DNA of 64,000 nt from Terriglobia bacterium (GCA_963664115.2 CAXWPJ010000002.1:128001-192000); one strand, 5' to 3'; counted from the stretch's first letter, positions 25,137 to 41,399 are shown. Numbers and translations are program-made. The notes: generated by a model from the letters alone, not told the origin.

Positions 25137-25244
25137 AAAAACGGCCTTTTGTCCGAATCATTCTGACGACGTACAAGCGGGAACGTCGCGTTTTCATCCC
25201 GTTAGTCTGCGTTCGGGAGACTTAAGCTGACAATGCCCACTAGT

Positions 25245-27091
25245 CCCTGAACAAGCGTGATTGACGAGGAAATGATAGTGCAATAAGAGCGGAAGTACCC
25301 GAAATGCCCCCTCTCCGTGCGAAAAAAACCTTGAACAGATTCTTCGGAAAAGGAGGCATTTCAGATGAACGATTATACGCGCAAGAACATGAGGAACCGC
25401 AAGCGGCGAATCGAACGTCGGCTTGGGGACCGGCATTGGACGGATCAGGTAGAGCCGATGTTTTCGGCGAGCAACATTCAGTACGAGATGGGAGAGCGGA
25501 CGCGGGGCACATCGGTTGGTGGTATCGGGACGATGCAACTGGTGGCGCGGCGGACCGGGCTGATCGAAGCCATCGACAAGGGCGTGCATGTGTTGAAGCG
25601 GCACCTGCCGTATCACGAGTCGGATCACGTGCTGAACATCGCCTACAACGCCTTGAGCGGAGGAACGTGCCTGGAAGACATCGAACTGCGGCGCAACGAT
25701 GCGGTGTATCTGGATGCGCTGGGAGCGCAACGGATTCCGGATCCGACGACGGCGGGAGACTTCTGCCGGAGATTCGAGGCCGACGACGTGGAGTGTCTGA
25801 TGGAGGCAACCAATCAAGTCCGGCTCGGAGTCTGGCGACAGCAACCGGCGGCGTTTTTCGAAGAAGCGGTGTTGGACGCGGACGGGACACTGGCCGAAAC
25901 CACGGGGGAATGCAAGCAAGGGATGGACGTGGCCTACGACGGGACGTGGGGATATCACCCGCTGATGATCTCGCTGGCCAACACCGCCGAACCGCTGTAT
26001 CTGGTCAATCGTAGCGGCAACCGGCCGTCGCATGAAGGAGCCGCGGTCCGGTTCGACCAAGCCATCGCATTGTGCCGGCATGCGGGGTTTCGCCAGATCC
26101 TGCTGCGCGGGGACACGGACTTCAGCCAGACCCGGCATCTGGACGGATGGGACGACCAGCAGGTGGGTTTCATATTCGGGATTGACGCGATGGCGAACCT
26201 GAAGGCCCGGGCCGATGAACTGGAGCCGCGCCAGTGGAAGCGCCTGGAACGGCCCGCGAAATACGACGTGGCGACCGAACCGCGCCAACGTCCCGACAAC
26301 GTGAAGGAAGAGATCGTTCGGCAGCGCGGTTTCGACAATATCCGCTTGCAGGGTGAGGATGTGGCCGAGTTTCGGTATCGACCCGGAGCCTGCGATCGGG
26401 ACTACCGTGTCGTCGTGGTGCGGAAGAATCTGTCGGTGGCCAAAGGAGAGCAGGTGTTGTTTGACGACATCCGGTACTTCTTCTACATTACCAACCGTTC
26501 GGATCCGGCCGACCAGATTGTGATGCGTGCCAATCAACGGTGCAATCAGGAGAATCTCATTGAGCAGTTGAAGAACGGCGTTCAGGCGTTGCGGATGCCG
26601 GTCGGAGATCAGACCAGCAACTGGGCCTACATGGTGATCGCGTCACTGGCCTGGACACTGAAAGCGTGGTTTGCATTGCTGCTTCCCGAAACCGGACGTT
26701 GGGGCCAAAAATATCAGGCTGAGAAGCAAACCGTGCTGCGCATGGAGTTCAAAACCTTCTTGAACGCTTTCATGCTTGTGCCGTGCCAACTCGTGCGCAC
26801 CGGGCGGCGCATTCTGTTCCGGATCCTGGCCTGGAACCGGTGGTTGCCGGTCTTGTTCCGCGGGGTGGATGTGTTGCGTCAGCCTCTGCGATGTTGACCC
26901 GATCATGACTCTGAGCCCGGGCGATCGAGGTCCCGGTTTCTGTCAACCGTCCAACACCAGCGAGGCTGAACTGAAACAGATTCAACAGAAACTCGATACC
27001 TGGAACAGGCCATCCGGGAACGGGATTCTATGCCTCGAATTCTATCGGCGCGAACTGGGCCTCGGCGGACTGGTTATGCGCTTGTTTTGGG
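25245..27091 (+). mobile_element. IS1380-family insertion sequence, copy 2
   Basis: Same 1847 bp element as 1268-3114; 6-bp duplication ACTAGT (25239-25244, 27092-27097). Confidence 0.9.
25365..26897 (+). CDS. IS1380-family DDE transposase
   Basis: Protein identical to 1462-2994. Confidence 0.92.
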   Translation: MNDYTRKNMRNRKRRIERRLGDRHWTDQVEPMFSASNIQYEMGERTRGTSVGGIGTMQLVARRTGLIEAIDKGVHVLKRHLPYHESDHVLNIAYNALSGGTCLEDIELRRNDAVYLDALGAQRIPDPTTAGDFCRRFEADDVECLMEATNQVRLGVWRQQPAAFFEEAVLDADGTLAETTGECKQGMDVAYDGTWGYHPLMISLANTAEPLYLVNRSGNRPSHEGAAVRFDQAIALCRHAGFRQILLRGDTDFSQTRHLDGWDDQQVGFIFGIDAMANLKARADELEPRQWKRLERPAKYDVATEPRQRPDNVKEEIVRQRGFDNIRLQGEDVAEFRYRPGACDRDYRVVVVRKNLSVAKGEQVLFDDIRYFFYITNRSDPADQIVMRANQRCNQENLIEQLKNGVQALRMPVGDQTSNWAYMVIASLAWTLKAWFALLLPETGRWGQKYQAEKQTVLRMEFKTFLNAFMLVPCQLVRTGRRILFRILAWNRWLPVLFRGVDVLRQPLRC

Positions 27092-27226
27092 ACTAGTGGC
27101 CTTGGCCTCCATCTCAAGCACTACAAACGAACGTGAATCCGGCCGCTGTATTGTGTATGCTGCAGTGAGATGTTCCGAAATGAGGATGCAGCGAGGAATT
27201 CCCTCGCACGACAAGAGGAGATTCAC

Positions 27227-27727
27227 ATGAAGTGGATGCGCACACTAGCTATTTTCGTCGCCGGGTCCGCAGTCGGCGCCGTTGCGATGCAGACGGTTGC
27301 CGCTCAGGAAAGCAGCAACACAGGCCTCCGCCTGAACCACGTCGGAATCGCCGTGGAAGACGTGGGTGAGGCCATAGAGTTTTACACCAAGGTGATGGGT
27401 TTTCGGGTGGCGTTCGAGTTTCCGAGCCCGGATGGCCGACCGACGACCACGTATCTCCAGATCAATCGTGACACGTTCCTGGAAGTGGCGCCGGCCAATG
27501 CAGATAGAGCCGCAGGCACCATCACCCACATCGGCATTCAATCCGAAAACGCGGACGCCACGGTCGCCCGGCTTCGCCAAGGCAGGGCAACAGTGACCGA
27601 CCCTCGCGTCAGTTCGAACAGTAGGGCCAAACTCGCCAACGTCACCGATCCTAACGGGATCCGATTGGAGTTGAATGAACTGGTTCCCGGCTCGCTCACG
27701 AGGCAAGCGGTAGAATCCTGGAGGTAG
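27227..27727 (+). CDS. Exported VOC/glyoxalase-family protein
   Basis: LNHVGIAV, FLEV, THIGI, DPNGIRLELNE; signal peptide; GAGGAG RBS. Confidence 0.85.
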   Translation: MKWMRTLAIFVAGSAVGAVAMQTVAAQESSNTGLRLNHVGIAVEDVGEAIEFYTKVMGFRVAFEFPSPDGRPTTTYLQINRDTFLEVAPANADRAAGTITHIGIQSENADATVARLRQGRATVTDPRVSSNSRAKLANVTDPNGIRLELNELVPGSLTRQAVESWR

Positions 27728-27808
27728 TTGCCTGGTCATGCTATGTTGGCCCAATGGCATACATCGTTTGGTAATACCGCGAACATGCTTTTAGATTGGA
27801 GGTGCCCT

Positions 27809-28180
27809 GTGAGATATCGGCTCATGACGGTTGCCGCGGTGGCGGCCGGCCTTCTGATAGTTTCAGTCCCGCTGGTAGCGCACCACAGTAACGTCAACTT
27901 CGATACCGGAAAGGAAATTACGATGCAGGGGACCGTCACGGAATGGGTTTGGGCCAATCCCCACTGCTTCTTAATATTCGATGTGCGGGACGACAATGGC
28001 AGCGTCGTTCACTGGATTGCTGAAAGTAGTAATCCTCCCGGCATGGCCCGGAAGGGCTGGAGCAACCAGTCACTGAAGCCCGGCGATGAAGTTACTGTGA
28101 CAGTGGAGCCCGTCAAGAACGGCAGCCCACTCGGGCGTATGCTGCAAGTCGTACTCCCGAATGGTCAGACATTAGATTAG
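27809..28180 (+). CDS. DUF6152-family exported protein
   Basis: Signal ending LVA|HHS...FD...GTVTEWVWANPH...W.AE...LKPGDEVTV. Confidence 0.8.
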   Translation: MRYRLMTVAAVAAGLLIVSVPLVAHHSNVNFDTGKEITMQGTVTEWVWANPHCFLIFDVRDDNGSVVHWIAESSNPPGMARKGWSNQSLKPGDEVTVTVEPVKNGSPLGRMLQVVLPNGQTLD

Positions 28181-28343
28181 GCACCCAGGGGGCCGGAAAT
28201 GTGGCCGCCCCGCCTTCGAGATAGGATGGAACCGTCGGCGCTTGAAGCAAGTCTGCTTTGATTGCAGGTCGATCATACAGTTTACGAGTGCGGCTCTTGT
28301 TGAGTTGCGACGAAATATGGATTTCGGGTAAGGAGTTACACGT

Positions 28344-29195
28344 ATGCCGAATCGACGCATAGTCTGGATCATCATCCTTGCTGTAGTACCGGCCTTTTCC
28401 CTCCTCGCTTTGGCTCAGACGCCTCAACCCATCTGGAATTCAATGGCACCGCCTGCCGAGTCGGATACGGTGCGAAACCGAGCGCCCGCCCCACGGCGTG
28501 ACCTGTCTGGGATTTGGGACCCGGCCGTCAACGCCATCGGGGCAGATGGTGCGCAAAACATGCCATCAGACGGCAGACCTGAGCATACTCTGCCTTATAC
28601 GTCGTTGGGGGAGGAAGCGTTCGATGCCAACAAGCCGGCATGGGGCGTTACCGGCGTTCCGTCGGCGCTTTCCAATGATCCAGTGCCTCTTTGTGATCCA
28701 CAGGGATTTCCGCGCATCGTTCTTCATAATTTCAGAACAAGCCAGATCTTTCAGACGGCGAACCAGGTGATCATCCTGTACGAATTTAACAAGAAATGGC
28801 GTGTCATTTGGACTGACGGACGAGAACTGCCCGAGTTGGATGAACTGGAGCCAAGATGGTGGGGGTACTCGGTTGGCAGGTGGGAGGACGACACCACGTT
28901 TGTCGCTGAGACGGTCGGGCTCAATGAAAGTACCTGGCTTGATAATGCAGGGCGTCCACACAGCAGCGATCTGCGCGTAGTGGAACGATACCGCCGCCTG
29001 GACCACGATCGCTTGGAAATGACAATTACGATTGACGACCCGACATTCTACACCCAACCTTGGATAGCACTCGACAAGCTACCTCTGGCGTTACAGCCGT
29101 CCGATTTCGATATTAGGGAGATGGAGTGCTCACCGTCAGAAACGGAGAGATATAACAGGCTGTTTGGTGACCCTGCCGCTGGTGTGGAACGATAG
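28344..29195 (+). CDS. Exported hypothetical protein (DUF6152 partner type)
   Basis: DLSGIW, DP...CDPQGFPR, GYSVGRWEDD..VAET, PHS..L.VVERY, TIDDP..YT.PW, EMEC. Confidence 0.75.
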   Translation: MPNRRIVWIIILAVVPAFSLLALAQTPQPIWNSMAPPAESDTVRNRAPAPRRDLSGIWDPAVNAIGADGAQNMPSDGRPEHTLPYTSLGEEAFDANKPAWGVTGVPSALSNDPVPLCDPQGFPRIVLHNFRTSQIFQTANQVIILYEFNKKWRVIWTDGRELPELDELEPRWWGYSVGRWEDDTTFVAETVGLNESTWLDNAGRPHSSDLRVVERYRRLDHDRLEMTITIDDPTFYTQPWIALDKLPLALQPSDFDIREMECSPSETERYNRLFGDPAAGVER

Positions 29196-29260
29196 CAAGA
29201 GCCGCGAATGACACCGTATCAGGCGGCAAGCATCAACGCGCTGCTGCCACTAGCTGACTT

Positions 29261-29674
29261 TGGCATTCCCGCAAGGTTCTGGCCTGGCGACTCTCAAACA
29301 CGCAGGATACGGCGATGTGTGTCGAAGCTTTGGAAGAAGCCATCGAACGCTACGGCTGTCCGGAAATCTTCAACACCGATCAGGGCAGCCAGTTCACCAG
29401 CACCGCCTGGACCGATGTTCTAAAGCATCACAACGTTCGGATCTCGATGGACGGCAAAGGCCAGTGGATGGACAACGTGTTCATCGAGCGTCTCTGGCGC
29501 TCACTGAAATACGAATGCGTCTACCTGAACGCCTTCGAGGATTTCAAAGATGCGGATATTCATATAAGGGATTGGATGGAGTACTACAATGACCATCGGC
29601 CCCATTCCACCCTCGGCGATCTCACCCCGGGCGAGGTCTACGACGGAATCACAACGGTATCTTCGGCAGCATGA
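29261..29674 (+). pseudogene. IS3-family transposase, 5'-truncated
   Basis: WHSRKVLAWRLSNT, FNTDQGSQFTS, DNVFIERLWRSLKYE, YNDHRPHSTL. Confidence 0.88.
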
Positions 29675-29679
29675 TTAAC

Positions 29680-31064
29680 GAGTTATAACCGAATCTGGTG
29701 TTTGAGGGATTGAATAAGAGCGGCGTATCTGGTTGATTTGTTGTGACAAAACTTCAAAGCAACCATAGGAGATACGCCACTGTGAGCAAGAGTAACGTGA
29801 ATGGACCGGAAGGTCGAGAAACGATTGAGGATCCAGTAACAGAACTACTACGAGTTGGGGCACAGCAACTGATCCAACGCGCAGTGGAAGCCGAATTGGC
29901 AGAGCTGCTATCCCAGCACGGTGGCCGGCGAACTGAGACAGGAAACGCCGGGGTGGTACGCAACGGTTATCTGCCGGAACGCGAACTGCAGACGGGATTG
30001 GGTCCGGTAACAGTCCAAATCCCGAAGGTCCGTGCCAAGACGGGCGAAGCTGTGACGTTCCGATCGGCCCTGGTACCACCGTACATTCGGAAGACGAAGT
30101 CGCTGGAAGCAGCGGTGCCGTGGTTGTATTTGAAAGGCGTTTCCAGCGGCGAGATGGGTGAGGCCCTAAAAGTTCTTGTCGGTCCCCAGGCGCAGGGTCT
30201 GTCGGCGAGCACGGTATCGCGGTTGAAACAGGTTTGGGGCGAACAGTACCGCCTCGGATGCGAGGAGCGTTTGGATGCAGATCGCTGGGTCTATGTCTGG
30301 GCCGACGGCATCTACAGCGGACTTCGGGCGGAACAAACCAAGTTGTGTGCATTGGTCGTGATCGGCGTGAATGAACGCGGAGAGAAGCGTTTCCTGGCGA
30401 TCGAAGACGGTGTACGGGAATCGACACAGAGTTGGCGCGAGGTCTTGTTGAAGCTGAAGTCCCGTGGGATGAATGTTCCGAAGTTGGCCATCGGTGACGG
30501 TGCGATGGGGTTCTGGGCCGCACTGGAGGAAATCTATCCCGAGACACGTCAACAACGTTGCTGGATGCACAAAGTCATGAACGTCCTCAACTGCCTGCCC
30601 AAGTCGGTCCAGGCGAAGGCGAAACAGGCCCTGCACTCGATCTGGCAGGCCGAGACGAAGGCAGACGCCGAGAAGGCATTCGACTTGTTCATTGAAACCT
30701 ATGAACCGAAGTATCCGAAAGCCACACTCTGCCTGCAGAAAGACAGAGAGGAACTGCTGGCCTTTTACGACTTTCCGGCCAAGCACTGGCAGAGCATCAG
30801 AACGACGAATCCCATTGAGTCGACCTTTGCCACCATTCGACACCGAACGAAGCGATCCAGAGGTTGCCTGACACGGGATGGCATGCTGCACATGATGTTC
30901 AAACTGGGCCAGTGCGCTGAGAACAATTGGCGACGATTACGAGGATTCGATGATCTGAGCAAGGTAATCATCGGAGTGAAATTCAACGATGGTGTCGAAG
31001 CGACACAAGTCGATCAGGCCGCCGCTTGAATCAATCTCCTAAACACCACTTTTGACAATAACTC
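29680..31064 (+). mobile_element. IS256-family element inserted in IS3 remnant
   Basis: TIRs GAGTTAT...GGTGTTT / AAACACC...ATAACTC; 9-bp duplication ATGATTAAC (29671-29679, 31065-31073). Confidence 0.9.
29782..31029 (+). CDS. IS256-family transposase
   Basis: RNGY, YVWADG, IGDGAMGFW, QRCWMHK, RTTNPIES. Confidence 0.93.
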   Translation: MSKSNVNGPEGRETIEDPVTELLRVGAQQLIQRAVEAELAELLSQHGGRRTETGNAGVVRNGYLPERELQTGLGPVTVQIPKVRAKTGEAVTFRSALVPPYIRKTKSLEAAVPWLYLKGVSSGEMGEALKVLVGPQAQGLSASTVSRLKQVWGEQYRLGCEERLDADRWVYVWADGIYSGLRAEQTKLCALVVIGVNERGEKRFLAIEDGVRESTQSWREVLLKLKSRGMNVPKLAIGDGAMGFWAALEEIYPETRQQRCWMHKVMNVLNCLPKSVQAKAKQALHSIWQAETKADAEKAFDLFIETYEPKYPKATLCLQKDREELLAFYDFPAKHWQSIRTTNPIESTFATIRHRTKRSRGCLTRDGMLHMMFKLGQCAENNWRRLRGFDDLSKVIIGVKFNDGVEATQVDQAAA

Positions 31065-31073
31065 ATGATTAAC

Positions 31074-31128
31074 CGTGGAATCCACCTTAAAATGGCTGCC
31101 AAGCTGTCCAACCGATGGGGTCCACTTC
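31074..31128 (+). mobile_element. IS3-family right end resumed after IS256
   Basis: CTGTCCAACCGATGGGGTCCACTTC, typical of IS3-family IRR. Confidence 0.7.
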
Positions 31129-31169
31129 TCTTAGCAACTGCCGCAGTCATTCTTGGAACGTAAGCGCTG

Positions 31170-31682
31170 CTACGGACCCGTCGCGGGGGCCCCCGCGTGC
31201 AGGTAATAGCGAATCCTCTCGAAAACTTCGTCCTCCAGCTCTAGGATTTCGCGAATCTGTTGTTGTGAGGCCAACAGGCCGTTAGATTCGCGGTACGCGA
31301 GCAGCCGGGCGGCCTGCTCACGGGTAATTCCGGGGATCTCGACTAGTTCGTCCTCTGATGCCGCATTCACATCGACGAGTGGAGGCACCTCTGGGCCGAA
31401 CACGTCAGTCAGGTAAACGATAATCTCTTCGGCTTCGTCAAGGAAGATCGGAGCGCCTCGCCCGATCATGTCGTAAACCGTCGCTTCCCATCTTTCTCGC
31501 GGCTTTCGCTCCCGCACCGTGCGCTCGAGATTGTGGCAGCTCTGACCGCAATACTGGGCCGTGAGTTCCTGCCCCTGTCCCGGCGGCAGGTATTCTGTCC
31601 ACTCTTCTTCGCGTTCTTGGCCTAATAACACCAAAGTTACACACATGCACCCGACCAATCCCACCGCTAGCCACTTATACAC
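31170..31682 (-). CDS. Cytochrome c-like domain plus ComEA-type helix-hairpin-helix
   Basis: LPPGQG.ELT...CGQSCH...W...V.DM..RGA; VDVNAAS.DEL..IPGI...A. Confidence 0.7.
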   Translation of the reverse strand: MYKWLAVGLVGCMCVTLVLLGQEREEEWTEYLPPGQGQELTAQYCGQSCHNLERTVRERKPRERWEATVYDMIGRGAPIFLDEAEEIIVYLTDVFGPEVPPLVDVNAASEDELVEIPGITREQAARLLAYRESNGLLASQQQIREILELEDEVFERIRYYLHAGAPATGP

Positions 31683-31765
31683 GTCCCTCCTCCCAATAAA
31701 TCCTCTCTCACCTGCCGCGGATGCTCAGTTCCTATCCCTGATGGCACAAGGCCAGTCAATCCGAG

Positions 31766-33679
31766 TTACACGAGTCTTGTCCGGGCTGCGGCAACCGAGT
31801 ACGCTGGGTACGAGCCCGCCTGTTCTGCACCGGAACCCGAGTTCTCGATACGGGCATCGATCAAGTACGGCCGCCCCTCACGCGTTGTTCTGATGGCCCG
31901 TGACATTGCCTCTCGAACTTGCTCGCGACTTTGCACCTGTTCGCCGCGGATGCCGAAGGCCTCGGCCACGCGAACGAAATCGACGTTCGGATCACCCAGG
32001 TAGGACAGCATGTCTTTTCCTACTTCGGCCTGGCGTCCGCCTCGCGAGAACATCCGGGCCCGGGTCTCGTTGTAGGAACGGTTGTTGAAAATGACGACGA
32101 TGACGGGAACGTCGTAACGAGACATGCTCCAGAGCGCCTCGATTTGGCCGAACAGAAAACCCCCGTCCCCTTGCAAACACACCACCTGATTGTCGGGCCG
32201 TGCGAGCTTGACCCCGACGGACGCCGCAACACCCCATCCCAGCGCATATCCGATGGTCCGGCCGATCTTCGTCTTCTCTTCCTCGGCAAAATTAAACCAT
32301 CGGAGCGCCTTCGGACCTTGCGTTCCAAACTCTTCCACGATGTAAGCATCGCGGTCTAGGGCAGCGTTGACTTCATACCCCACGCACTCGAACGTCAGGG
32401 GAACCTCATCAAATCGGCGCTGGGCGACGAATTCGAAAGACTCACGCATCCTTTGCGTAAATTCTGCTGTTGCTTCCTGGCGGGGCTGCCGGATCCGCTC
32501 CAGACGTTCGTTAGTCGCCAGACTCCTGATACTTTCCACCAGGGCCGTGGCCGTCTCGTTGACGCTTCCGGCCAAGGGGACGTGAACCGGATAAGCCGTT
32601 CCGATATGATCCGTTTCGACACGGCCGTGTATGATCTTTGCGTTCCGGAGCCGATCGTTTTCGAGCGACGCCGCGCCCGACATATGCGCGCCTAAATTCA
32701 AGTACACGTCGATGCTTTCAGGAAAGCGGCCACCGGAGACTTCAAGAAACAGCGGATGTTTGGTTGGGAAGTCGGCGGCCCAGCTCCGCGCCTGGGTCAC
32801 TGGAATTGCCAACAGTTCCGCAAGCTCGACAACGGATGCCCCAGCGCCAGATGCGGTAACCTCCGGGCCCACGTATAGAAGAGGGCTTTCGGCCTCGAGC
32901 AGCATCCGGGCCGCCTCGTCCACGTCTTGCGGGTGGGGTTGCAGAGTCGTGGGTACGCTGAACGTACGGGACGGGTAGATGCCCGCCCGCATATTACTTG
33001 TGTAGAGCACATCGCGGGGAAAACGAAGATACACCGGTCCTCCCGGCATAGTCGTAGCCAGCTTCAAGGCTTTCGTGGTCCACTCGGGAATTCGATCGGG
33101 CTCAGACACAAGCCAGCGGAACTTCGTGAACTGCTCGACGGTTTCCAGCCAGTCCTCGACGTCTTCATGTCCGTCCCGTCCAGCGCGATCGGTCTCGGAG
33201 TGATCTGAAGTCACGATGATCGGGCTACGATCCTTCATCGCGTTGTACATGTTTGACGTCGCGTTGGGCGATCCCACACGACTGATCATCACGAAGCCGG
33301 GGTTTCCCGACGCTTTCGCGTAGCCGTCCGCCATTGCGACACAGTGGCCCTCATGGGTAGCGAGAATTGGTTGCATGTCGGGGCGATCGACGAGCGCATC
33401 ACACAGTGGGCCGAGCCCCGAGCCATTTCCGAGGAACAGGAACTTAATGCCAGCGGCCCGCAATTGTTCCGCCAAGACCTCTCCGGCATTCCCTTCGAAC
33501 GGAGTCAGCAGTTCGGCTGGGGCGTCCCCCGCCTGAGCGCTCTGAGCCTGGACGAACGGTTCCAGCGATTTCAAGACGGATGCGACCGCGGTCACTCCGA
33601 ACCCAGCCTGCGACATCCGTTTCACGAAAGACCGGCGTGGAATCGTCTGCTCGATGTAGTCTCTAACGATATCTCTCAT
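31766..33679 (-). CDS. ThDP-dependent enzyme (benzoylformate decarboxylase/ALS-like) with Tat signal
   Basis: RRSFVK; HEGHCVAMADGYAK; GDGGF...NNRSY ThDP motif. Confidence 0.85.
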   Translation of the reverse strand: MRDIVRDYIEQTIPRRSFVKRMSQAGFGVTAVASVLKSLEPFVQAQSAQAGDAPAELLTPFEGNAGEVLAEQLRAAGIKFLFLGNGSGLGPLCDALVDRPDMQPILATHEGHCVAMADGYAKASGNPGFVMISRVGSPNATSNMYNAMKDRSPIIVTSDHSETDRAGRDGHEDVEDWLETVEQFTKFRWLVSEPDRIPEWTTKALKLATTMPGGPVYLRFPRDVLYTSNMRAGIYPSRTFSVPTTLQPHPQDVDEAARMLLEAESPLLYVGPEVTASGAGASVVELAELLAIPVTQARSWAADFPTKHPLFLEVSGGRFPESIDVYLNLGAHMSGAASLENDRLRNAKIIHGRVETDHIGTAYPVHVPLAGSVNETATALVESIRSLATNERLERIRQPRQEATAEFTQRMRESFEFVAQRRFDEVPLTFECVGYEVNAALDRDAYIVEEFGTQGPKALRWFNFAEEEKTKIGRTIGYALGWGVAASVGVKLARPDNQVVCLQGDGGFLFGQIEALWSMSRYDVPVIVVIFNNRSYNETRARMFSRGGRQAEVGKDMLSYLGDPNVDFVRVAEAFGIRGEQVQSREQVREAMSRAIRTTREGRPYLIDARIENSGSGAEQAGSYPAYSVAAARTRLV

Positions 33680-33759
33680 GATTTCGCCTCCTGGCGTGCT
33701 AAGGATTCCTCTCCTCGAAGAGCTCGACGAAGAGAGAACCTCCATTGCCGTTCGTCGGT

Positions 33760-34108
33760 TTTAGCGGGCCGCTCTACGGAACTGTTTTCTTCGATAGGCC
33801 TCTTCAGATTTGACCCCAACCGAACTATATATGATATCCGTCCGGATGACGCCGTTTCGTCATGGTGAATCCCAGGGGCGGCCTGCAAGCGGCTTCGGGG
33901 CTCCAACAGATAGTCGAGATCCAAAATTGGTTTGAAGAACTGAAGGAACGGGCTCCTGTACCGTAACTTTCAAGCTCAAGTTCTGAGAAATCATCTTCTC
34001 GGAGATTGAGAAATGGTCGAAAGTCGGGCATCGACGCATTCCTTGCCAATAACCCTCCCATGTAGATAGACTTACCAGAATTTGGGCGCTCTCTTTGGCG
34101 GCAAACCT
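33760..34108 (+). repeat. Kinase-TolB 3' remnant plus conserved promoter-like tail, copy 1
   Basis: LF...YDIRPDD/RFVMV...QNWFEELKERAPVP* (TAA 33964), then TTGCCA-N18-TAGACT. Confidence 0.8.
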
Positions 34109-34192
34109 GGGCTGGCCCGACGGCAACGGACATGATTGCGGCGGCTGGAGAGACTACGGCCGCGGATAAGAAATCTCTTCGGGGAGGCAATA

Positions 34193-35128
34193 ATGAACAC
34201 AAAGACAATCAGCGTCGGCTTATTGATTCTGGGTGCCGGCTTCGTATTTTCCCAGATGGCGGGTGCGCAGGGCGCGGGCGCCAATGTCGATACGATCACC
34301 CAGTTGACGGATAACGTCTATCGGCGCGGCCCCACCTCGAACGTCTTCATGGTGACGGACGAGGGCATCATCATGGTCGATGCCACTTGCGATGGGGGAG
34401 GTATGGAGTGGCTCAAGGAAGAGTTAGATCGCCGGTTTGGCGTCCCGGTGAAGTACGTCATCCTGAGTCACGACCACGAGATGCACATCTGCGGGCTGCA
34501 AGTCTTCGATGACACAGCGGTGACGATCGGCCACAAGAACATCAGAGAGCACATTATTAGAGAAGGCCGGAATACATCCGTACCCGATGTCGTCTTCGAG
34601 GGGGATAACCTGGAGATCTATCTCGGTGGCCAGAGGGCGATCGTGTACTATTTCGGTCCCCTCCACAGCGACAACCTGGTCCAGGTTCACTTCCCAGACG
34701 AAGGCGTGATGGTCGCGACGGATCTGGTTCGCGCCGGCAAGTCGATCGGACTGCCCGACTACCGCGACTCGAACGTGAACAACATGATCGAGGCGCTCTG
34801 GAAATTATCTAAACTGGATAACATCGATATCGTGGTTCCCGGTCACGCGGGCCTCGCCGATCAGCAATCGTTTACCTTTTATCGTGAGTATCTGATCGCT
34901 CTCAGGGAGCGGGTGCTGGACGAGATGGTGGAGGGCGCCTCAATCGAGGAGATTCTGGAGCGGGTCACCATGGAGGATTTCTCCGACTACGGCAACTACG
35001 ACAACTGGCTTCGCGCCAATATCATCTCCATGTGGGATTATCTCTATCGCTACAGGGAGCCGAGCCAGGGCGTGGGGGACTACCAGAATGTGTATCCCAT
35101 CGGTTTCCCGATCGGCGCTCCGGAGTAA
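34193..35128 (+). CDS. Exported MBL-fold metallohydrolase
   Basis: SHDHEMH, LHSDN, ATD, VPGH; signal peptide. Confidence 0.85.
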   Translation: MNTKTISVGLLILGAGFVFSQMAGAQGAGANVDTITQLTDNVYRRGPTSNVFMVTDEGIIMVDATCDGGGMEWLKEELDRRFGVPVKYVILSHDHEMHICGLQVFDDTAVTIGHKNIREHIIREGRNTSVPDVVFEGDNLEIYLGGQRAIVYYFGPLHSDNLVQVHFPDEGVMVATDLVRAGKSIGLPDYRDSNVNNMIEALWKLSKLDNIDIVVPGHAGLADQQSFTFYREYLIALRERVLDEMVEGASIEEILERVTMEDFSDYGNYDNWLRANIISMWDYLYRYREPSQGVGDYQNVYPIGFPIGAPE

Positions 35129-35234
35129 GCGCGAGCGAGGACTACACGACGCATGCATAGGACCCCTGGCCCGATCGCCGCGCTGGCACTCACCGGCCGG
35201 GCCGGAATTCGGCTCAAGCTATTGGCTGGTCCGG

Positions 35235-35400
35235 CGATCCGAATCAACATCGTCCTAAACTGGTTTGAAGAACTGAAGGAATGGGTGCCTGTGCCCTGAT
35301 TTTCGAGGTCAAGGCCTGAGCAATCATCTTCCCGGACCTTGAGAATCGCCCGAATTACAGGCGCTGACAGTTTTCTTGCTTATAAGTCCCGCCTGTAGAT
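35235..35400 (+). repeat. Kinase-TolB 3' remnant plus tail, copy 2
   Basis: RINIVLNWFEELKEWVPVP* (TGA 35297); tail similar to copies 1 and 3. Confidence 0.8.
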
Positions 35401-35407
35401 GGTGATC

Positions 35408-36280
35408 CTACCGGCCCGGTCCCCCCTCCGCCTCCCGGAGCATCGCTTCGAATCTGGCTTCGACATCCGGCACGAAACTCCTCCACCCTTCCGCGTCAAT
35501 GCAGGTCACACACCTCGGGTCGACGGGAAGAGCCGGGTCCAACTCGCGGGGCGGATCCTGCGGATGATTGTGGAGGAAGAGGTCGGGGGGTTCGAGCTCC
35601 TTCAGCCTTTGAAGAGTCCTCTGCGTGTCGGCGACAACCGTCGGGTGCCTGGGATTGTTGAAGAGCTGAGCCCCCGCGTTCGGAATTTCGCCGCCACGGA
35701 AGGCGATGGAATAAGTATTCCCACCCTCCTCGACGGTTGTCATCCACATCGTTGCTCCTTGCGTGTGGCCCCCCGTCCAGAGGGCGCGCAACGTCACTGC
35801 GCCGAGCGTGACTGTGTCACCGTCCTCGACCACGCGATCCACCGTGACAGGCTCAAAGTTCCGGGCCCCGATAGCCGAGTTGTCCTGGCCTGATTGGAGC
35901 GCCACGGCGTCGCCGCCGAGCGCAACAACCTGCGCACCGGTCACTCGCTTCATGGCCGCGTGCCCCTCGACGTGGTCCCAATGTGCATGGCTCGAGATCA
36001 TGATCCGGATGTCCCGAACGTTGAATCCGAGTTTCTCGACGTTCGATACGATGAGCTCGTGCATATCGGCACTGCCCGTGTCGTGGAGAATGTGGCCCTC
36101 CGGCGTGGTGATGAGATAGGAGCCATATTGGCCGCCCACATAGTAGATATTGCCTATGACGCGGAACGGTTCCACGGTTTCGTTCGCCGCCTGAATTCGC
36201 TCTCTTCGTTCCGCCCCACCATACGGCGACATCGATACCATCGCTGCACTCAGCACCACCAGTGCACATATCAGACGCAT
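35408..36280 (-). CDS. Subclass B3-like metallo-beta-lactamase fold protein
   Basis: PFRVIGNIYYVG, SYLITTPEGHIL, SHAHWDH, GGHTQG. Confidence 0.85.
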   Translation of the reverse strand: MRLICALVVLSAAMVSMSPYGGAERRERIQAANETVEPFRVIGNIYYVGGQYGSYLITTPEGHILHDTGSADMHELIVSNVEKLGFNVRDIRIMISSHAHWDHVEGHAAMKRVTGAQVVALGGDAVALQSGQDNSAIGARNFEPVTVDRVVEDGDTVTLGAVTLRALWTGGHTQGATMWMTTVEEGGNTYSIAFRGGEIPNAGAQLFNNPRHPTVVADTQRTLQRLKELEPPDLFLHNHPQDPPRELDPALPVDPRCVTCIDAEGWRSFVPDVEARFEAMLREAEGGPGR

Positions 36281-36440
36281 ACGGCCTCCTTACAAAAGTT
36301 GTGGATGTCAGACGCGTTTTCAGGTTTTCAACACCGCATCGTGGGTCGGCGTAAGATACATCATTTTCGAATTACTCAAGTTTCAGTATCCGAGGACTTC
36401 ACCGGATGAGACCTCCGGCAGTCGGGCGGCACCGGCTGGA

Positions 36441-37394
36441 TCAATATTCCCCACGCGCCACATCTGCACTCAGGCACTCGATCTGCCACCCGGCAAATTG
36501 CTGGAAACCCTCCACACCAATAAGGAATGGATTCGGCTGGCCCGGTTGACGCGTCCGCGCTGCTTCGATCGTCGGCAGGGAATCGTCGATGTAGGAGTGG
36601 TTGTTGAGTTCGACGTCCACCCCGGCCGCTTTGGCGAGCGTCGCCATCCGCTGGGTCGATTCCATCATCTCGCGAGAAGTCGCCAGCGAAACGGTCCGTG
36701 GTCCGTTCAGGAAAAAGGCGAGGTGAGGCTGCCCACCTTCCATCACGGGCACCATCGTAGACAACGCTCCGTCAGTATGCCCCGGCGTGGAGTAAAACGT
36801 CAGGGTCGTGCCCCCGAGGGTCAGTGTGTCACCGTCGGCTACCACCATGTCGCGCTCCGGCGGTGCCGCGCGGCCCGATTCGGTACTCGCTTCCATCGTA
36901 CGCCAGGCCAGTTCGGTCGCCACCACTCGCGCGCCAAAACGTTCCTGAAGGTAGCGGGCGCCTCCATAGTGATCGCCATGTTCGTGGCTGATCACCACGT
37001 ACTGGATACGTGAGGGATCGAGGCCGAGCTGTTCCATGCCCCCGACAATCTTCACCTCCGCATCCTGGGCATCGTTCAAAGAATCGAGAAGAATAATCCC
37101 GTCGGGTGTGTCCACCGCCCACGAATAGACCCTGGGGAGACCCAGGAAGTAGAGGTTGTCGAAGACACGGACGGGCGCCACCGTTTCGGGAAGCTCGGGC
37201 CGGGGGCGGCCGTTGCGGGGCAAGCATAGCCGCGTCATTGCTCGCTCGTAACGCGTACCGGCAAGTTCTATGGCTTTATCGACGTGCATCTGCACCGCCG
37301 GTGCTTCCTGCGCATGCGCGGGAACGGCGGTGGCCAGGTTCGAAACGACAACGGCGACTACGAGCATGAATTTTACTGTCTGCATTGTTTTCAT
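36441..37394 (-). CDS. B3-like MBL-fold hydrolase
   Basis: VFDNLYFLG, SHEHGDHYGG, TPGHT, NNH; N- and C-terminal Cys. Confidence 0.85.
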   Translation of the reverse strand: MKTMQTVKFMLVVAVVVSNLATAVPAHAQEAPAVQMHVDKAIELAGTRYERAMTRLCLPRNGRPRPELPETVAPVRVFDNLYFLGLPRVYSWAVDTPDGIILLDSLNDAQDAEVKIVGGMEQLGLDPSRIQYVVISHEHGDHYGGARYLQERFGARVVATELAWRTMEASTESGRAAPPERDMVVADGDTLTLGGTTLTFYSTPGHTDGALSTMVPVMEGGQPHLAFFLNGPRTVSLATSREMMESTQRMATLAKAAGVDVELNNHSYIDDSLPTIEAARTRQPGQPNPFLIGVEGFQQFAGWQIECLSADVARGEY

Positions 37395-37751
37395 TGTCCT
37401 ATTCTCATGTTCAATTCAAAGGAAAACGCGCGCGAATACCGGCGTCACGGCCAAACTTCCCCAATACTTTGCACCCGCTGCCGGGCAAACGTCTAGATAA
37501 TTCTCATCAGCTAGACCCCCGGCTATGCCGGCGTGACTCGCAGAAGTTTGTCCCTACTTCCTTCATTTCCTGGGCATACACTGCACCTGTCCGTTCACGT
37601 AAAGTGTTCGATTGACCGCCTGCGGTCACCCGTCTAGTCGAAAGTTGAGAATCGAATCTACCACCGAGGGCGCGTATTTCACCTATACTTCACCGACACT
37701 AGCTTGCGCCCGCTGACAGTATCGTCCGTCCAGACTTATAAACACCGCCGC

Positions 37752-38603
37752 CTAAGCAGATTCAGGCCGATGCGCCCGGAGGAAGGAACGAATCTGGCGC
37801 ACTGCCAGGGGAATTAGCTCGGGAGGCTCCTTCCATGGGTACATGCTCAGTTCGGCTTTCGGCGCGAGCATCGCAGACTCCATGGCGACGGCGTAGGGGT
37901 GCGCCGGGCTATCATCGGGCAGGATCAGTACGGGCGTCTGGCAATTGCGCACGAAATCGCGTGTCACGGTGATGACGAAGTCGATGTTGCGATACATCTT
38001 GGTCAGGTATGCGTCGACCGTCTCCATCGTGATCTCGGGCCGGCTCTCCACTATCTCGGAGCCCCAGCCGCTCATGTTGCCCTCGTAGAAGCGGTCGGGC
38101 GCTTCCGGGCGGAACCCAAGGGGCTGCGCCAGCACGGCGGCGGCGACACGATCCGGAGCCCGCTCCAGCAGGTTCCAGATTAAAGGGCCGGCGATGCAGA
38201 AGCCCAGCACCATGAACTTGTCGATGCCCAGGTGATCCATCAGACCGAGATGGTCATCGGTATATGCATCCCACGGCCGGTCGATCTCGAGTGGGCCGGT
38301 GGATTGGCCGGGAATGGCATTGCGCAAGTCCGATCCGATGCAGCGGTATTCTCCGCTGAACTCCTCGATCGTGTTAAAGGGGCCTCGGAACAATCCGGAC
38401 ATCGTCGAGTTCAATCCCCCGCCGGCGATGAGCAACAACGGGAAGCCGGAACCGAACTCTTCATAGTGGATGCGAACGGGGCCTCTTTCGTAGAAGGAGC
38501 CAGTGCCCCCCTGCCCCGTCTGTTGAGCGAACAAGCGCGGCGCTGCGGCCATCGCCGTCGCCGCGGCTCCCGCCGCCAGTATTTTGCGTCTGATTGGATC
38601 CAT
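37752..38603 (-). CDS. Alpha/beta hydrolase with Cys nucleophile and Tat signal
   Basis: IRRKIL signal; GFCIAG elbow; GGGLNS. Confidence 0.82.
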   Translation of the reverse strand: MDPIRRKILAAGAAATAMAAAPRLFAQQTGQGGTGSFYERGPVRIHYEEFGSGFPLLLIAGGGLNSTMSGLFRGPFNTIEEFSGEYRCIGSDLRNAIPGQSTGPLEIDRPWDAYTDDHLGLMDHLGIDKFMVLGFCIAGPLIWNLLERAPDRVAAAVLAQPLGFRPEAPDRFYEGNMSGWGSEIVESRPEITMETVDAYLTKMYRNIDFVITVTRDFVRNCQTPVLILPDDSPAHPYAVAMESAMLAPKAELSMYPWKEPPELIPLAVRQIRSFLRAHRPESA

Positions 38604-38724
38604 AGTCGACGTCCTCCTCAAATTGTTGCGTCCCGTGGGTGCGGGTCAAATCGCCAGAGCGTTGTCCTCTAGAGCTTCGAAAATATATCATGGTCTTCTT
38701 GAAAGAGCGGACCGAATTGGAAGA

Positions 38725-38940
38725 AGCCGAGCGCCCATGAATCAACATCGTCCTGATCTGGTATGAAGAACTGAAAGAACGGGTGCCGGTGCCCTAGAAA
38801 AATGATTCTCGAGTCCTGATAATTCCCGTTCCCGGACCTTGGGAATTGGCAAATTTTAGGGACTTGACCCTGTCCTTGCCAATAACCTTCCCTTGTCGAT
38901 AGACTTAGCAGAATTTCGGTGTCCCGTTTGGCGACACACT
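38725..38940 (+). repeat. Kinase-TolB 3' remnant plus tail, copy 3
   Basis: *INIVLIWYEELKERVPVP* (TAG 38795); TTGCCA-N18-TAGACT at 38876-38905. Confidence 0.8.
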
Positions 38941-39182
38941 AAATCATCAATCCGGAATGGGACTTGTGTGCATTCTCGTCCAAACGTAGATCTCTATGGA
39001 GGCGCTGGAAGCACGTATGAGGCTATGACTGTTGCCTACAGCTATGTAGGATTGATGGATCAGGACTTGGCACCCGGCCCGACCTGCTCCTGTGTGAAGC
39101 TGCTAGCCGGGTGAGTGCCTAGAGCACTTCGGTCCAGGCAATCACCTGTCCGGTTGGCCGGATGCCAAGTAAGGAGGACGCC

Positions 39183-40241
39183 ATGCATGCTGCTGTCCCT
39201 AGATGCGTATCGAGTGCTGCACTGATGCTGGCCTTAGTCCCGAGCGCCACAGTCAATCGGATGGCGGCCCAAGAGGCACAGCCACAACGGCCACTGGTTA
39301 AGATCGTCGCCACCGGCGGCACTATTGCCAACTCGCCCGAGGGTCGCATGGCCGTGGATACGGTGCTGGCGCAGATTCCTGAAATTGCCGAACACGCGCG
39401 AATCGAGGTGGTGGATTATAGCCGCATAGGCTCGTCGGCAATCACAGTACAGAACTGGATCGACGTCGGAGCTATCGTCAACCAGATCTTTGAAACCGAA
39501 CCACAGGTGGCCGGCATCGTCGTCACGCACGGCTCGAATACCTCTGAGGAGACCGCATACTTCCTGTCACTCACCGTGAACCACACCAAGCCTGTTGTGG
39601 TGACCGCCGCCCAGCGCCAACAGAGCACTCTGGGCGAAGAAGGTACCCGCAACCTTTTCGACGCCATCCGCGTCGCCGCCTATCCGGGGGCAGCGGGCAA
39701 GGGCGCGATGCTCGTAGTGAACGAAAAGATTCATCCTGCTCGTGACGTGACCAAGCGGATGACGGTGCGCGTGGAAACTTGGGAGTCGGGCGATGTGGGC
39801 GCACTGGGTGTTGTAGATGTCGATGCGGTCACCTTTTACAATCAGCCGGTCTACAAGCACACCACCGGTTCCGACGTGCGACTTCCTGCCGGCATTACCC
39901 GGGCGGGCGAGTTACCCCGGGTAGATATTATCTACGCCTATGCCGACGCCGACGGTGCGCTGGCCGAGGCAGCCGTTCAGGCCGGAGCGCAGGCGATCGT
40001 GGTCGCTGGCTTTCCGACAGGTGCGGCCACGCCGGCCCAGTATGAGACGCTGGACCGGCTGCGCGATCAGGGCACCATCGTGATCATGTCGAACCGCGGC
40101 GGACTGGGCCGGATCAACACCAACAACCGGTATATCTCGGCCGATAATTTGACCCCGCAGAAGGCACGCATCCTGGCCATGCTGGCGCTGACGCGCGATC
40201 CGTCGGCCGCATTCGTTAAGGAAGTGATGGACTCACACTGA
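39183..40241 (+). CDS. Asparaginase/glutaminase family, exported
   Basis: ATGGTIA, THGSNTSEETAY, RDVTK, NLTPQKARIL; AAGGAGG RBS. Confidence 0.88.
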   Translation: MHAAVPRCVSSAALMLALVPSATVNRMAAQEAQPQRPLVKIVATGGTIANSPEGRMAVDTVLAQIPEIAEHARIEVVDYSRIGSSAITVQNWIDVGAIVNQIFETEPQVAGIVVTHGSNTSEETAYFLSLTVNHTKPVVVTAAQRQQSTLGEEGTRNLFDAIRVAAYPGAAGKGAMLVVNEKIHPARDVTKRMTVRVETWESGDVGALGVVDVDAVTFYNQPVYKHTTGSDVRLPAGITRAGELPRVDIIYAYADADGALAEAAVQAGAQAIVVAGFPTGAATPAQYETLDRLRDQGTIVIMSNRGGLGRINTNNRYISADNLTPQKARILAMLALTRDPSAAFVKEVMDSH

Positions 40242-40337: not shown

Positions 40338-41399
40338 ATGCAGACATTCCCGCTCGAGCCTCGAAGACGCCACATCTTCATTAAAGCAATGGCACCTGCC
40401 CTTCTGGGTCTGGTTGCCATCGTCACCGCGACTGTAGCTTCGGGACACCATGCCGCCCAGGTTACCTACTTCACGGATCAGGTCATTGAGGTCGAAGGTG
40501 AAATTACCGGTCTTCTCTGGAGAAACCCGCATCTGCGTTTCACCATCAATGCAACTGATGCGCAAGGCGGGACGGTGCTATGGAATGTTGAGAGTATCCC
40601 GGTGACCCGACTCGCACGGGTTGGTATATCGGCCGACCTGGTCGGTGTGGGACAGACGGTCAGGGTGGCAGGATTTCCTTCAAGACGTTCTACGAATGCA
40701 GTCTATGCCATCAATATGTTACTTCCCGATGGCCGGGAAGTTCTCCTCGACACCCCCGTCGCGCGCTGGACCGATAACACACTCGGCACAGGCCGCGATG
40801 AGACCCCGGGGACCCCGAGCGCTGATACCTCTTTAGGCATTTTCCGCGTGTGGAGCACCGACGGCGTGCCTCTGCCTCTGAACCGCAACGAAAGCTACCA
40901 ATTAACTGAAGAGGCCCGCATCGCTCAAGCTCGGTGGGACCCCCTATCGCCCGACAACCCATTTTTCACGTGCACGGCCAAGGGCATGCCGATGATCATG
41001 ACGCAACCCAACCCGATGGAGTTCGTGGATCAAGGAGACCAGATTCTCCTTCGACTCGAGGAATACGATACCGTTCGGGTGATCTCCATGCGCAGTGAAG
41101 GGTCGGATGAAGCGATCGAGGCGACGCTTCTCGGCCACTCAGTTGGCCGATGGGAAGGACGCACTCTTGTGGTGATGACCGACCGGATAAACTGGCGTTA
41201 CTTCGGTCAGAACGGACTGCTTCAAAGTGAGGCGATCGAGCTCGTCGAGCGCTTCACCCCGAGCGTGGACGGGGCTCGCCTCGACTACGAGCTGACAATC
41301 ACGGATCCAGCGCTTTTTACCGAGCCAACGGTCCTGACGAAGTCTTGGCAATGGGTGCCCGGAGATCAGGTCTTGCCGTTCGACTGTACGGAAGGTTAG
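40338..41399 (+). CDS. DUF6152 domain fused to partner domain
   Basis: ASG|HH...WRNPH then NPFFTCTAKGMP...GHSVGRWEG.TLVV.T...ITDP..FT.P...FDC. Confidence 0.78.
   Translation: MQTFPLEPRRRHIFIKAMAPALLGLVAIVTATVASGHHAAQVTYFTDQVIEVEGEITGLLWRNPHLRFTINATDAQGGTVLWNVESIPVTRLARVGISADLVGVGQTVRVAGFPSRRSTNAVYAINMLLPDGREVLLDTPVARWTDNTLGTGRDETPGTPSADTSLGIFRVWSTDGVPLPLNRNESYQLTEEARIAQARWDPLSPDNPFFTCTAKGMPMIMTQPNPMEFVDQGDQILLRLEEYDTVRVISMRSEGSDEAIEATLLGHSVGRWEGRTLVVMTDRINWRYFGQNGLLQSEAIELVERFTPSVDGARLDYELTITDPALFTEPTVLTKSWQWVPGDQVLPFDCTEG

Follow-up and report, generated by a model that had tools for sequence, protein, structure and literature searches.

We examined a cluster of three genes in a 64,000-nucleotide stretch of DNA from a Terriglobia bacterium, the whole of which is referred to below as the window. 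The three open reading frames lie in the same direction on the plus strand and encode, in order, a protein of the VOC superfamily, a DUF6152 protein (hereafter A) and a partner protein (hereafter B). The features that are discussed are as follows.

25365..26897, plus strand: IS1380-like transposase upstream of the cluster; context
27227..27727, plus strand: VOC (glyoxalase-fold) protein of 166 aa, likely exported; Pfam Glyoxalase, E 1.8e-15; hydrophobic leader; accessory gene
27809..28180, plus strand: DUF6152 protein A, 123 aa from a GTG start; PF19649, E 4.9e-29; leader followed by a 99-residue domain with an OB-fold model
27881..27886, plus strand: His1-His2, the predicted mature N-terminus of A (mature start at 27881)
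27962..27964, plus strand: His28 of A, in the NPH motif; touches Tyr270 of B in the model
28022..28024, plus strand: Glu48 of A (WxxE), candidate fourth ligand or second-shell residue; 98/125 paralogs
28344..29195, plus strand: partner B, 283 aa, likely exported; calycin-like beta-barrel model; conserved G56/W58, R153, G174, E214 and D232
28692..28694, plus strand: Cys117 of B, 139/141 paralogs; putative disulfide with Cys262
29127..29129, plus strand: Cys262 of B, 138/141 paralogs
29139..29183, plus strand: C-terminal helix of B, residues 266-280, through which B chiefly contacts the A OB fold in the model
29315..31029, plus strand: IS3-type integrase fragment and Mutator/IS256 transposase downstream of the cluster; context
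40389..41399, plus strand: paralog in which A and B form one chain, 11 kb downstream of the cluster; leader, HHAAQ..., then barrel

The cluster is flanked by insertion sequences on both sides. The genome as a whole is heavily loaded with such elements, with about 78 IS1380-like, 60 IS256-like and 38 IS3-like genes by crude clustering. Window positions 25240-39331 form a 14,093-base repeat that begins at the IS1380-like element and recurs at the end of the same contig (G000:C2:14093-1) with 99.95% identity; it is either a recent duplication or an assembly artefact. Three adjacent MBL-fold genes with leader peptides are located at 34136-37385, and MBL-fold proteins, numbering 83-86 in the genome, constitute a second large expansion that clusters with A and B. 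A small protein encoded on the minus strand at 31170-31682, next to a TPP enzyme gene, has a helix-hairpin-helix domain and the sequence CGQSCH (Cys-X3-Cys-His, as opposed to the usual CxxCH), with a weak match to a quinohaemoprotein haem domain (E 0.014). Contigs from RNA libraries of three studies span parts of the VOC, A and B genes, which we do not take as proof of expression.

Protein A scored 100.7 bits against the Pfam DUF6152 profile (PF19649), for which the curated cut-off is 27, and is a member of that family. Its leader ends in PLVA, and the predicted mature protein begins HHSNVNFD and contains W24-A-N26-P27-H28, just as the first-pass annotation had read when it described a His-His start and a W.NPH motif. 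The three histidines H1, H2 and H28 occur jointly in 123/125 A paralogs of the genome, at a mean identity of 33%, and this was counted in favour of the redox enzyme discussed below; the same pattern is found in 117/119 closer homologs. The two exceptions in the genome are a fragment and a truncated copy that starts Tyr-His. This truncated copy, and another A with a short internal duplication, are found at G000:C2:991476-991892 and C12:439511-440074. The residue preceding His1 is Ala in 113/124 A, and a hydrophobic stretch precedes His1 in 124/124. Only two further predicted genes match a leader-like pattern followed by HH, neither with a convincing signal peptide. This pattern suggests that A is cleaved directly before His1, in which case a histidine at position 1, as in a histidine brace, would be present in 123/125 paralogs. 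The conserved H1, H2 and H28 thus form a computationally supported candidate three-His site, and they strongly suggest that A binds a metal.

The structural model of A was predicted with a pLDDT of 94 overall and 79 for residues 1-10. Its best fold matches were SSB and PriB OB folds (Z 9.1, rmsd 2.9, 85 residues aligned; Z 9.4, rmsd 2.6, 81 residues aligned). No His-brace protein was seen among the fold matches listed for A, and OB folds of the CusF, SilF and YgiW type were absent from the 50 matches listed. A sequence search of the PDB with A alone gave no match, and Foldseek found none for the models of A and B at E 0.001. The A profile hit the adhesin 6xi3 at E 1e-4, in which no stretch passed by itself, and this hit was set aside. 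The closest named relatives of A come from Terriglobia and other Acidobacteriota.

Partner B belongs to a family that is very large, with 8,455 clusters or representatives at 50% identity (E up to 0.001), yet it has no match in Pfam or NCBIfam. Its matches in the ESM Atlas were unnamed clusters only, and sequence searches of the PDB gave three chance matches at E 0.2 with B and nothing with the B profile. The motifs CDPQGFPR (residues 117-124), GRWE (178-181) and PHS (205-207) are present as previously described, whereas the cysteine that had been called terminal is C262, 21 residues from the end. The histidine of PHS (H206) is kept in only 34/141 paralogs and in 101/132 closer relatives, and it is not supported as a core feature. 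Positions that are conserved among the 141 paralogs are C117 (139), R153 (136), G174 (141), E214 (135), D232 (139) and C262 (138), together with an N-terminal GxW motif consisting of G56 (126/141) and W58 (120/141). C117 and C262 are the sole cysteines of B and probably form a disulfide, judging from their joint retention. Among 34 long B matches, 22 are tandem B-B proteins and seven carry B behind an MBL-fold hydrolase.

The model of B (pLDDT 92.6) is a beta-barrel whose top fold matches were all calycins, namely nanoKAZ (Z 8.2, rmsd 3.6, 122 aligned), LBP-8 (Z 8.2) and a nitrobindin domain (Z 7.3), with rmsd of 3.2-3.6 for the best, although a Z of about 8 is near the level of common beta arrangements. 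B resembles the calycins (FABP, nitrobindin, nanoKAZ luciferase and bilin lyases; Z 8.2-6.2) also in its N-terminal GxW. It differs from them in having only 8-15% identity and in its own long lid-like insertion, its Cys pair and its docking helix.

Linkage of the two genes was assessed by gene-neighbourhood statistics, a check that the first-pass annotation had proposed. An A gene lies within 1 kb of a B gene on the same strand in 98/125 cases; 200 random trials gave 4.8 such cases on average and never more than 11. Fusions in the order A-B account for 40/56 long A matches and 3/150 B representatives, and none was in the order B-A; that A is N-terminal in every fusion seen fits a need for its free amine. 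Eight in-frame reading frames in this genome hold both A and B domains.

When A and B were modelled together with Zn included, the complex scored 0.71, and the best of three controls scored 0.00. The score mark is reached by 116/157 solved complexes and 2/215 mismatched pairs, a calibration that is rough for A+B (own alignments, Zn included). Separate model runs share at least 86% of their contacts, with a partner pLDDT of at least 88, and since sequence searches found no solved relative of A or B, the score is unlikely to reflect a memorised structure. In the model the B helix of residues 266-280 lies on A, and H28 of A touches Y270. Further interface residues are H2 and E48 of A and residues 99-107, 115, 131, 147 and 258-263 of B, of which 99-107, 115 and 131 belong to the lid-like insertion and E147 is at a barrel turn. 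This turn presumably corresponds to the ligand portal of FABPs. Whether H1, H2 and the NPH histidine cluster at the A-B interface had been posed as a check; H2 and H28, as well as E48, are among the interface residues, and the residues predicted there with confidence do not include H1. The docking helix is variable and is near-absent in several B and in most fusions, an indication that subfamilies dock in different ways.

Covariation between the chains was analyzed in 93 pairs. The predicted interface accounted for none of the 30 strongest couplings, for 7 of the 100 strongest (2.6 expected) and for 17 of the 300 strongest (7.9 expected), in an alignment that is too shallow and is confounded by kinship. 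The distances of 61 paired A and B gave a Mantel r of 0.62 (null maximum 0.20), which we rejected as proof of contact since it reflects co-duplication of A and B. Overall, the prediction is that A and B associate as an exported heterodimer. The earlier proposal stands in part: a two-subunit exported unit with a candidate three-His site and a Cys-paired partner is backed computationally by the conservation of H1/H2/H28 and of C117 (139/141) and C262 (138/141), by the A-first fusions and by the model score of 0.71.

A steadier companion of A than the VOC gene is a membrane protein of the DUF6644 family, which the first-pass annotation had missed, as it had the second partner family and the roughly 100-fold expansion described below. 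The genome has 21 DUF6644 genes, 15 of which are within two genes of an A or B. Of 151 genomes of the phylum, 14 contained A, 14 contained B, 15 contained DUF6644 and 13 contained the complete set; in this comparison kin are not independent, and 19-30 candidates were scored per genome. The odd genomes are one with A and DUF6644 only (G167), one with B only (G174) and one with a single weak DUF6644 (G086). Genomes with a single A have 2-10 B matches and two DUF6644. The arrangement PQQ-propeller, B, B, A, DUF6644 pair is found in 6/12 low-copy loci, which come from related genomes and are not independent, and the heading PQQ propeller carries a cytochrome c domain in three of the five scanned.

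In the class to which G181 belongs, A is present in 20/151 genomes. Fifteen of 16 weak matches at divergent single-copy A loci were examined, the one below the cut-off being left out. All 15 A start HHGW and keep the PH motif, with an acidic residue at position 48 in seven, and all 15 are directly upstream of one DUF6644-like gene. No B was found beside these 15 units within up to about 3 kb per side, nor in the whole genomes of 10 that carry the unit, searched with the same profile that detects B in 14 genomes elsewhere. A two-gene unit of an HHGW-type A and a single DUF6644 also occurs in the genome studied here (G000:C9:1273367-1276294), where one copy is split by an IS1380 element.

His33 and Lys103 are invariant in 27/27 DUF6644 proteins. 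The weak Pfam matches of these 27 were to DUF2214 (10), to the HemJ family (2, best E 0.14) and to CopD (1, E 0.003), and the ESM Atlas returned DUF6644 only. HemJ ligates its haem by a His and a Lys. The match of DUF6644 to the HemJ profile was weak (probability 8%, E 0.004), and in it the invariant His of the first helix and the invariant Lys of the third helix align. DUF6644 differs from HemJ (PgdH2) and DUF2214 in consisting mostly of two divergent tandem genes, which in the loci seen showed no link to the synthesis of haem. HemJ itself contains b-type haem (PMC13564367), and DUF6644 may likewise carry haem b. In some DUF6644, for example at L159, G000:C2:349875 and C12:259658, an additional membrane domain at the N-terminus has several conserved His (HxHxxxNHxP...H...HPEI) and is possibly haem-binding.

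The second partner of A is F20, an unnamed leader-bearing family of about 215 aa with 13 copies in this genome. It matched nothing in Pfam, NCBIfam or the PDB. Eleven A follow an F20 gene, and in 10 of these, which make up a single clade (support 0.992), the fourth residue is a His; only 3/93 B-linked A have this His. Among the relatives, the best 18 of about 77 F20 matches all directly precede an A, and 17 of those A start HHSH. F20 is present in 11/31 genomes, this one included, all of which belong to one family. It is the partner that goes with the His-His-Ser-His clade, and A thus has the look of a metal domain that can be plugged into three contexts or more. Among the families neighbouring A or B, the counts are 26/83 for the MBL fold, 12/28 for NHL, 8/19 for amidohydrolase and 7/20 for PQQ proteins, which are mostly leader-bearing and catabolic or redox. 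Also observed were the unnamed family F68, 5/6 of whose members adjoin A or B, and a 27-member family without Pfam match.

Iterated profiles detected 125 A and 145 B reading frames in the 4.9 Mb genome, amounting to about 3.4% of the sequence. The A copies still make up 48 clusters when grouped at 50% identity (117 at 95%), which indicates that the expansion is old and divergent. Matches to DUF6152 were found in 15/18 genomes of the same family, with at least 45 in 12 of them (these are matches, not copy numbers, and at most 112 were scored), and in only 1/12 genomes from other families of the class. Outside this group, cultured sphingomonads carry A, B and DUF6644, and Azospirillum replicons carry weak A-only matches.

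We compared the system with known metalloproteins. NiSOD has a His-Cys-X-X-Pro-Cys hook and a helical bundle, whereas mature A starts HHSN, lacks Cys in its first 28 residues and is mostly beta in the model. The OB-fold chaperones CusF and SilF bind Cu(I) at a His-Met-Met-Trp site, in contrast to A, whose alignment has no invariant or near-invariant Met. LPMO-type brace enzymes, which have cytochrome electron donors, share with A the N-terminal His, a second His and, if A is an enzyme, an external source of electrons; A differs in its modelled fold, in its likely periplasmic location and in a substrate pocket predicted on a separate chain, and had no match to polysaccharide-active families. 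CopC is an Ig-like sandwich. A had no match to the CopC profile at E 0.1, and PF04234 found nothing in the genome. The pairs CopC-CopD and YcnI-YcnJ resemble the system in placing an exported protein with an N-terminal His after cleavage beside a membrane protein, DUF6644 having weak CopD-like matches, and differ from it in the His-His start, the barrel partner and the more than 100 paralogs of A. YcnI is cupredoxin-like as opposed to the OB-fold model of A (PMC12154828). In another study, four families of secreted N-terminal-His proteins, to this extent like A, were found to bind metals, with DUF4198 and DUF6702 stabilised most by Ni and the anglerases Ang-1 and Ang-2 tied to permeases (PMC12537917). 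DUF6702 and the anglerases are beta-sandwiches that go with HupE/UreJ or TonB/Nik genes (PMC12537917), in contrast to the calycin and DUF6644 partners of A. A search of the main text of openly available articles found no paper for DUF6152, DUF6644 or their Pfam accessions, in agreement with the earlier remark that no function had been described. Literature on sponge and Acidobacteria expansions and on OB-fold periplasmic proteins yielded nothing on the A family. We regard the system as real and undescribed, in outline like the known N-terminal-His metal proteins and a member of none.

The reading that we favour, with a rough probability of 0.4, is a periplasmic metal-dependent redox enzyme fed through DUF6644. 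A would hold a transition metal, copper in the first place and possibly nickel, through its free N-terminus, His1, His2 and His28, and this site would sit beside the likely mouth of the barrel of B. Supplied with electrons via the DUF6644 membrane proteins, A-B would work in the periplasm as a redox enzyme specific for its substrate. A with DUF6644 would form the basic unit, to which B or F20 is added as an interchangeable module for the substrate, and a broader range of substrates would have arisen as A-B pairs were duplicated. The VOC protein would belong to a local pathway as one of its enzymes. B may bind an organic ligand, and A-B may be catalytic. That the best fold matches of B are ligand-binding or catalytic calycins was counted in favour of the redox enzyme, and 125 A in 48 clusters against 21 DUF6644 are in keeping with many substrates served by a common hub. 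That the substrates are organic is suggested by how numerous and divergent the pairs are, by the small set of DUF6644 that they share, by neighbours that are catabolic or bear cytochromes, and by the MBL-B fusions. A more specific form of this proposal, which we put forward tentatively, is that DUF6152 is the metal subunit of a so far undescribed superfamily of periplasmic copper redox enzymes that are modular, with a brace on an OB fold, exchangeable partners (thousands of calycins, and F20) and quinone electrons delivered through a DUF6644 dimer with His/Lys-ligated haem b.

Several results weigh against the redox enzyme. The closeness of the B fold scores to background weakens the calycin argument, no set of conserved catalytic residues was located in the barrel, and the docking helix through which B would meet A is not constant. 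The HemJ match of DUF6644 is weak (8%), and with its weak CopD match a copper importer fits equally well. The A-DUF6644 units without B (15/15) resemble CopC-CopD, and A can evidently work barrel-free. The strongest competitor is a CopC/CopD-like uptake system, which we consider possible if somewhat doubtful. In it, A would capture Cu(II) or Ni(II) and pass the metal to DUF6644 for import, and B would bind metal chelates arriving from TonB-dependent receptors, from which A strips the metal. The minimal unit of A followed by DUF6644 mirrors the CopC/YcnI plus CopD layout (PMC12154828). Uptake is also favoured by the failure to find CopC and CopD in this 97% complete genome, and by TonB-dependent receptors near A/B in 3/4 sphingomonad plasmid loci and 10/35 related loci. 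On the other hand, 125 divergent copies are hardly needed for metal uptake. Among 57 neighbour proteins of the minimal loci, none matched copper or nickel homeostasis families at E 1e-8, and the A/B nearest to the one multicopper oxidase is 8 kb away, that nearest to a P-type ATPase 36 kb, and those nearest to SCO proteins 35 and 243 kb. The redox enzyme and metal uptake may both be true, in different subfamilies.

We regard as improbable that the system merely captures and imports organic solutes without catalysis. In that scheme, B would be a barrel that binds ligands in the periplasm, with A as a metal-bearing lid or adaptor, and the DUF6644 pair would serve as a small carrier in the inner membrane. 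The calycin fold of B, the excess of B over A, the B-B and MBL-B fusions and the receptors and catabolic genes near A/B would all be accommodated, but the A-DUF6644 units that lack B and the strictly kept three-His N-terminus would be left unexplained.

The VOC gene bears on a further alternative. Its product scored 57.8 bits against the Glyoxalase HMM (cut-off 20.6), which places it in the VOC superfamily. Among the named subfamilies in NCBIfam (glyoxalase I, MMCE, Fos and extradiol dioxygenase) it gave 23 weak matches, none near the cut-off. Its candidate ligands H38/E86/H101/E148, which we take to be the ligand pattern of VOC enzymes, are kept in 4/4 aligned paralogs. An exported VOC enzyme had been annotated as preceding A and B, and a gene with a leader does lie there; its standing as a core component is not supported, as VOC occurs in 6/35 related loci, in none of the four plasmid loci and in 0/12 low-copy loci. 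At E<1e-15, it was found in 2/151 genomes of the phylum, both rich in A and B. VOC is a recurring accessory gene. It would nevertheless be the client if A and B were a metallochaperone for adjoining exported metalloenzymes (VOC, MBL fold, amidohydrolase), which we think quite unlikely. In keeping with this, the gene immediately before A is VOC both here and in five of the 35 related loci, VOC comes directly after a B-A pair in another genome (G146), and a mismatch-free RNA-library contig, which may be DNA carry-over, bridges VOC and A. Against it, VOC is missing from all the low-copy loci, and among the five close VOC paralogs in this genome two have no A/B nearer than 4 kb and 86 kb, respectively, and two represent copies of a single locus. 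An apparent enrichment of VOC near A/B (3/5, p 0.012) was rejected because two of the three belong to that duplicated locus. Finally, that the histidines of A are structural or bind an organic ligand, with no metal at all, is very improbable: the fold matches of A are indeed SSB/PriB-type OB folds and include no His-brace protein, but the three invariant histidines with a protected free N-terminus fit the rule by which four metal-binding families were found (PMC12537917).

Three histidines forming a site at the N-terminus of an OB fold would provide histidine-brace chemistry with a new scaffold. The fusion at window positions 40389-41399 is a convenient construct for biochemistry, and carriers among cultured sphingomonads and Azospirillum make the question open to ordinary genetics and biochemistry. 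Under the tentative copper-enzyme proposal, some Acidobacteriota would spend about 3% of their genome on these enzymes, as other bacteria do on P450s or glycoside hydrolases. The system may account for the way in which uncultured Acidobacteriota deal with a variety of organic compounds.
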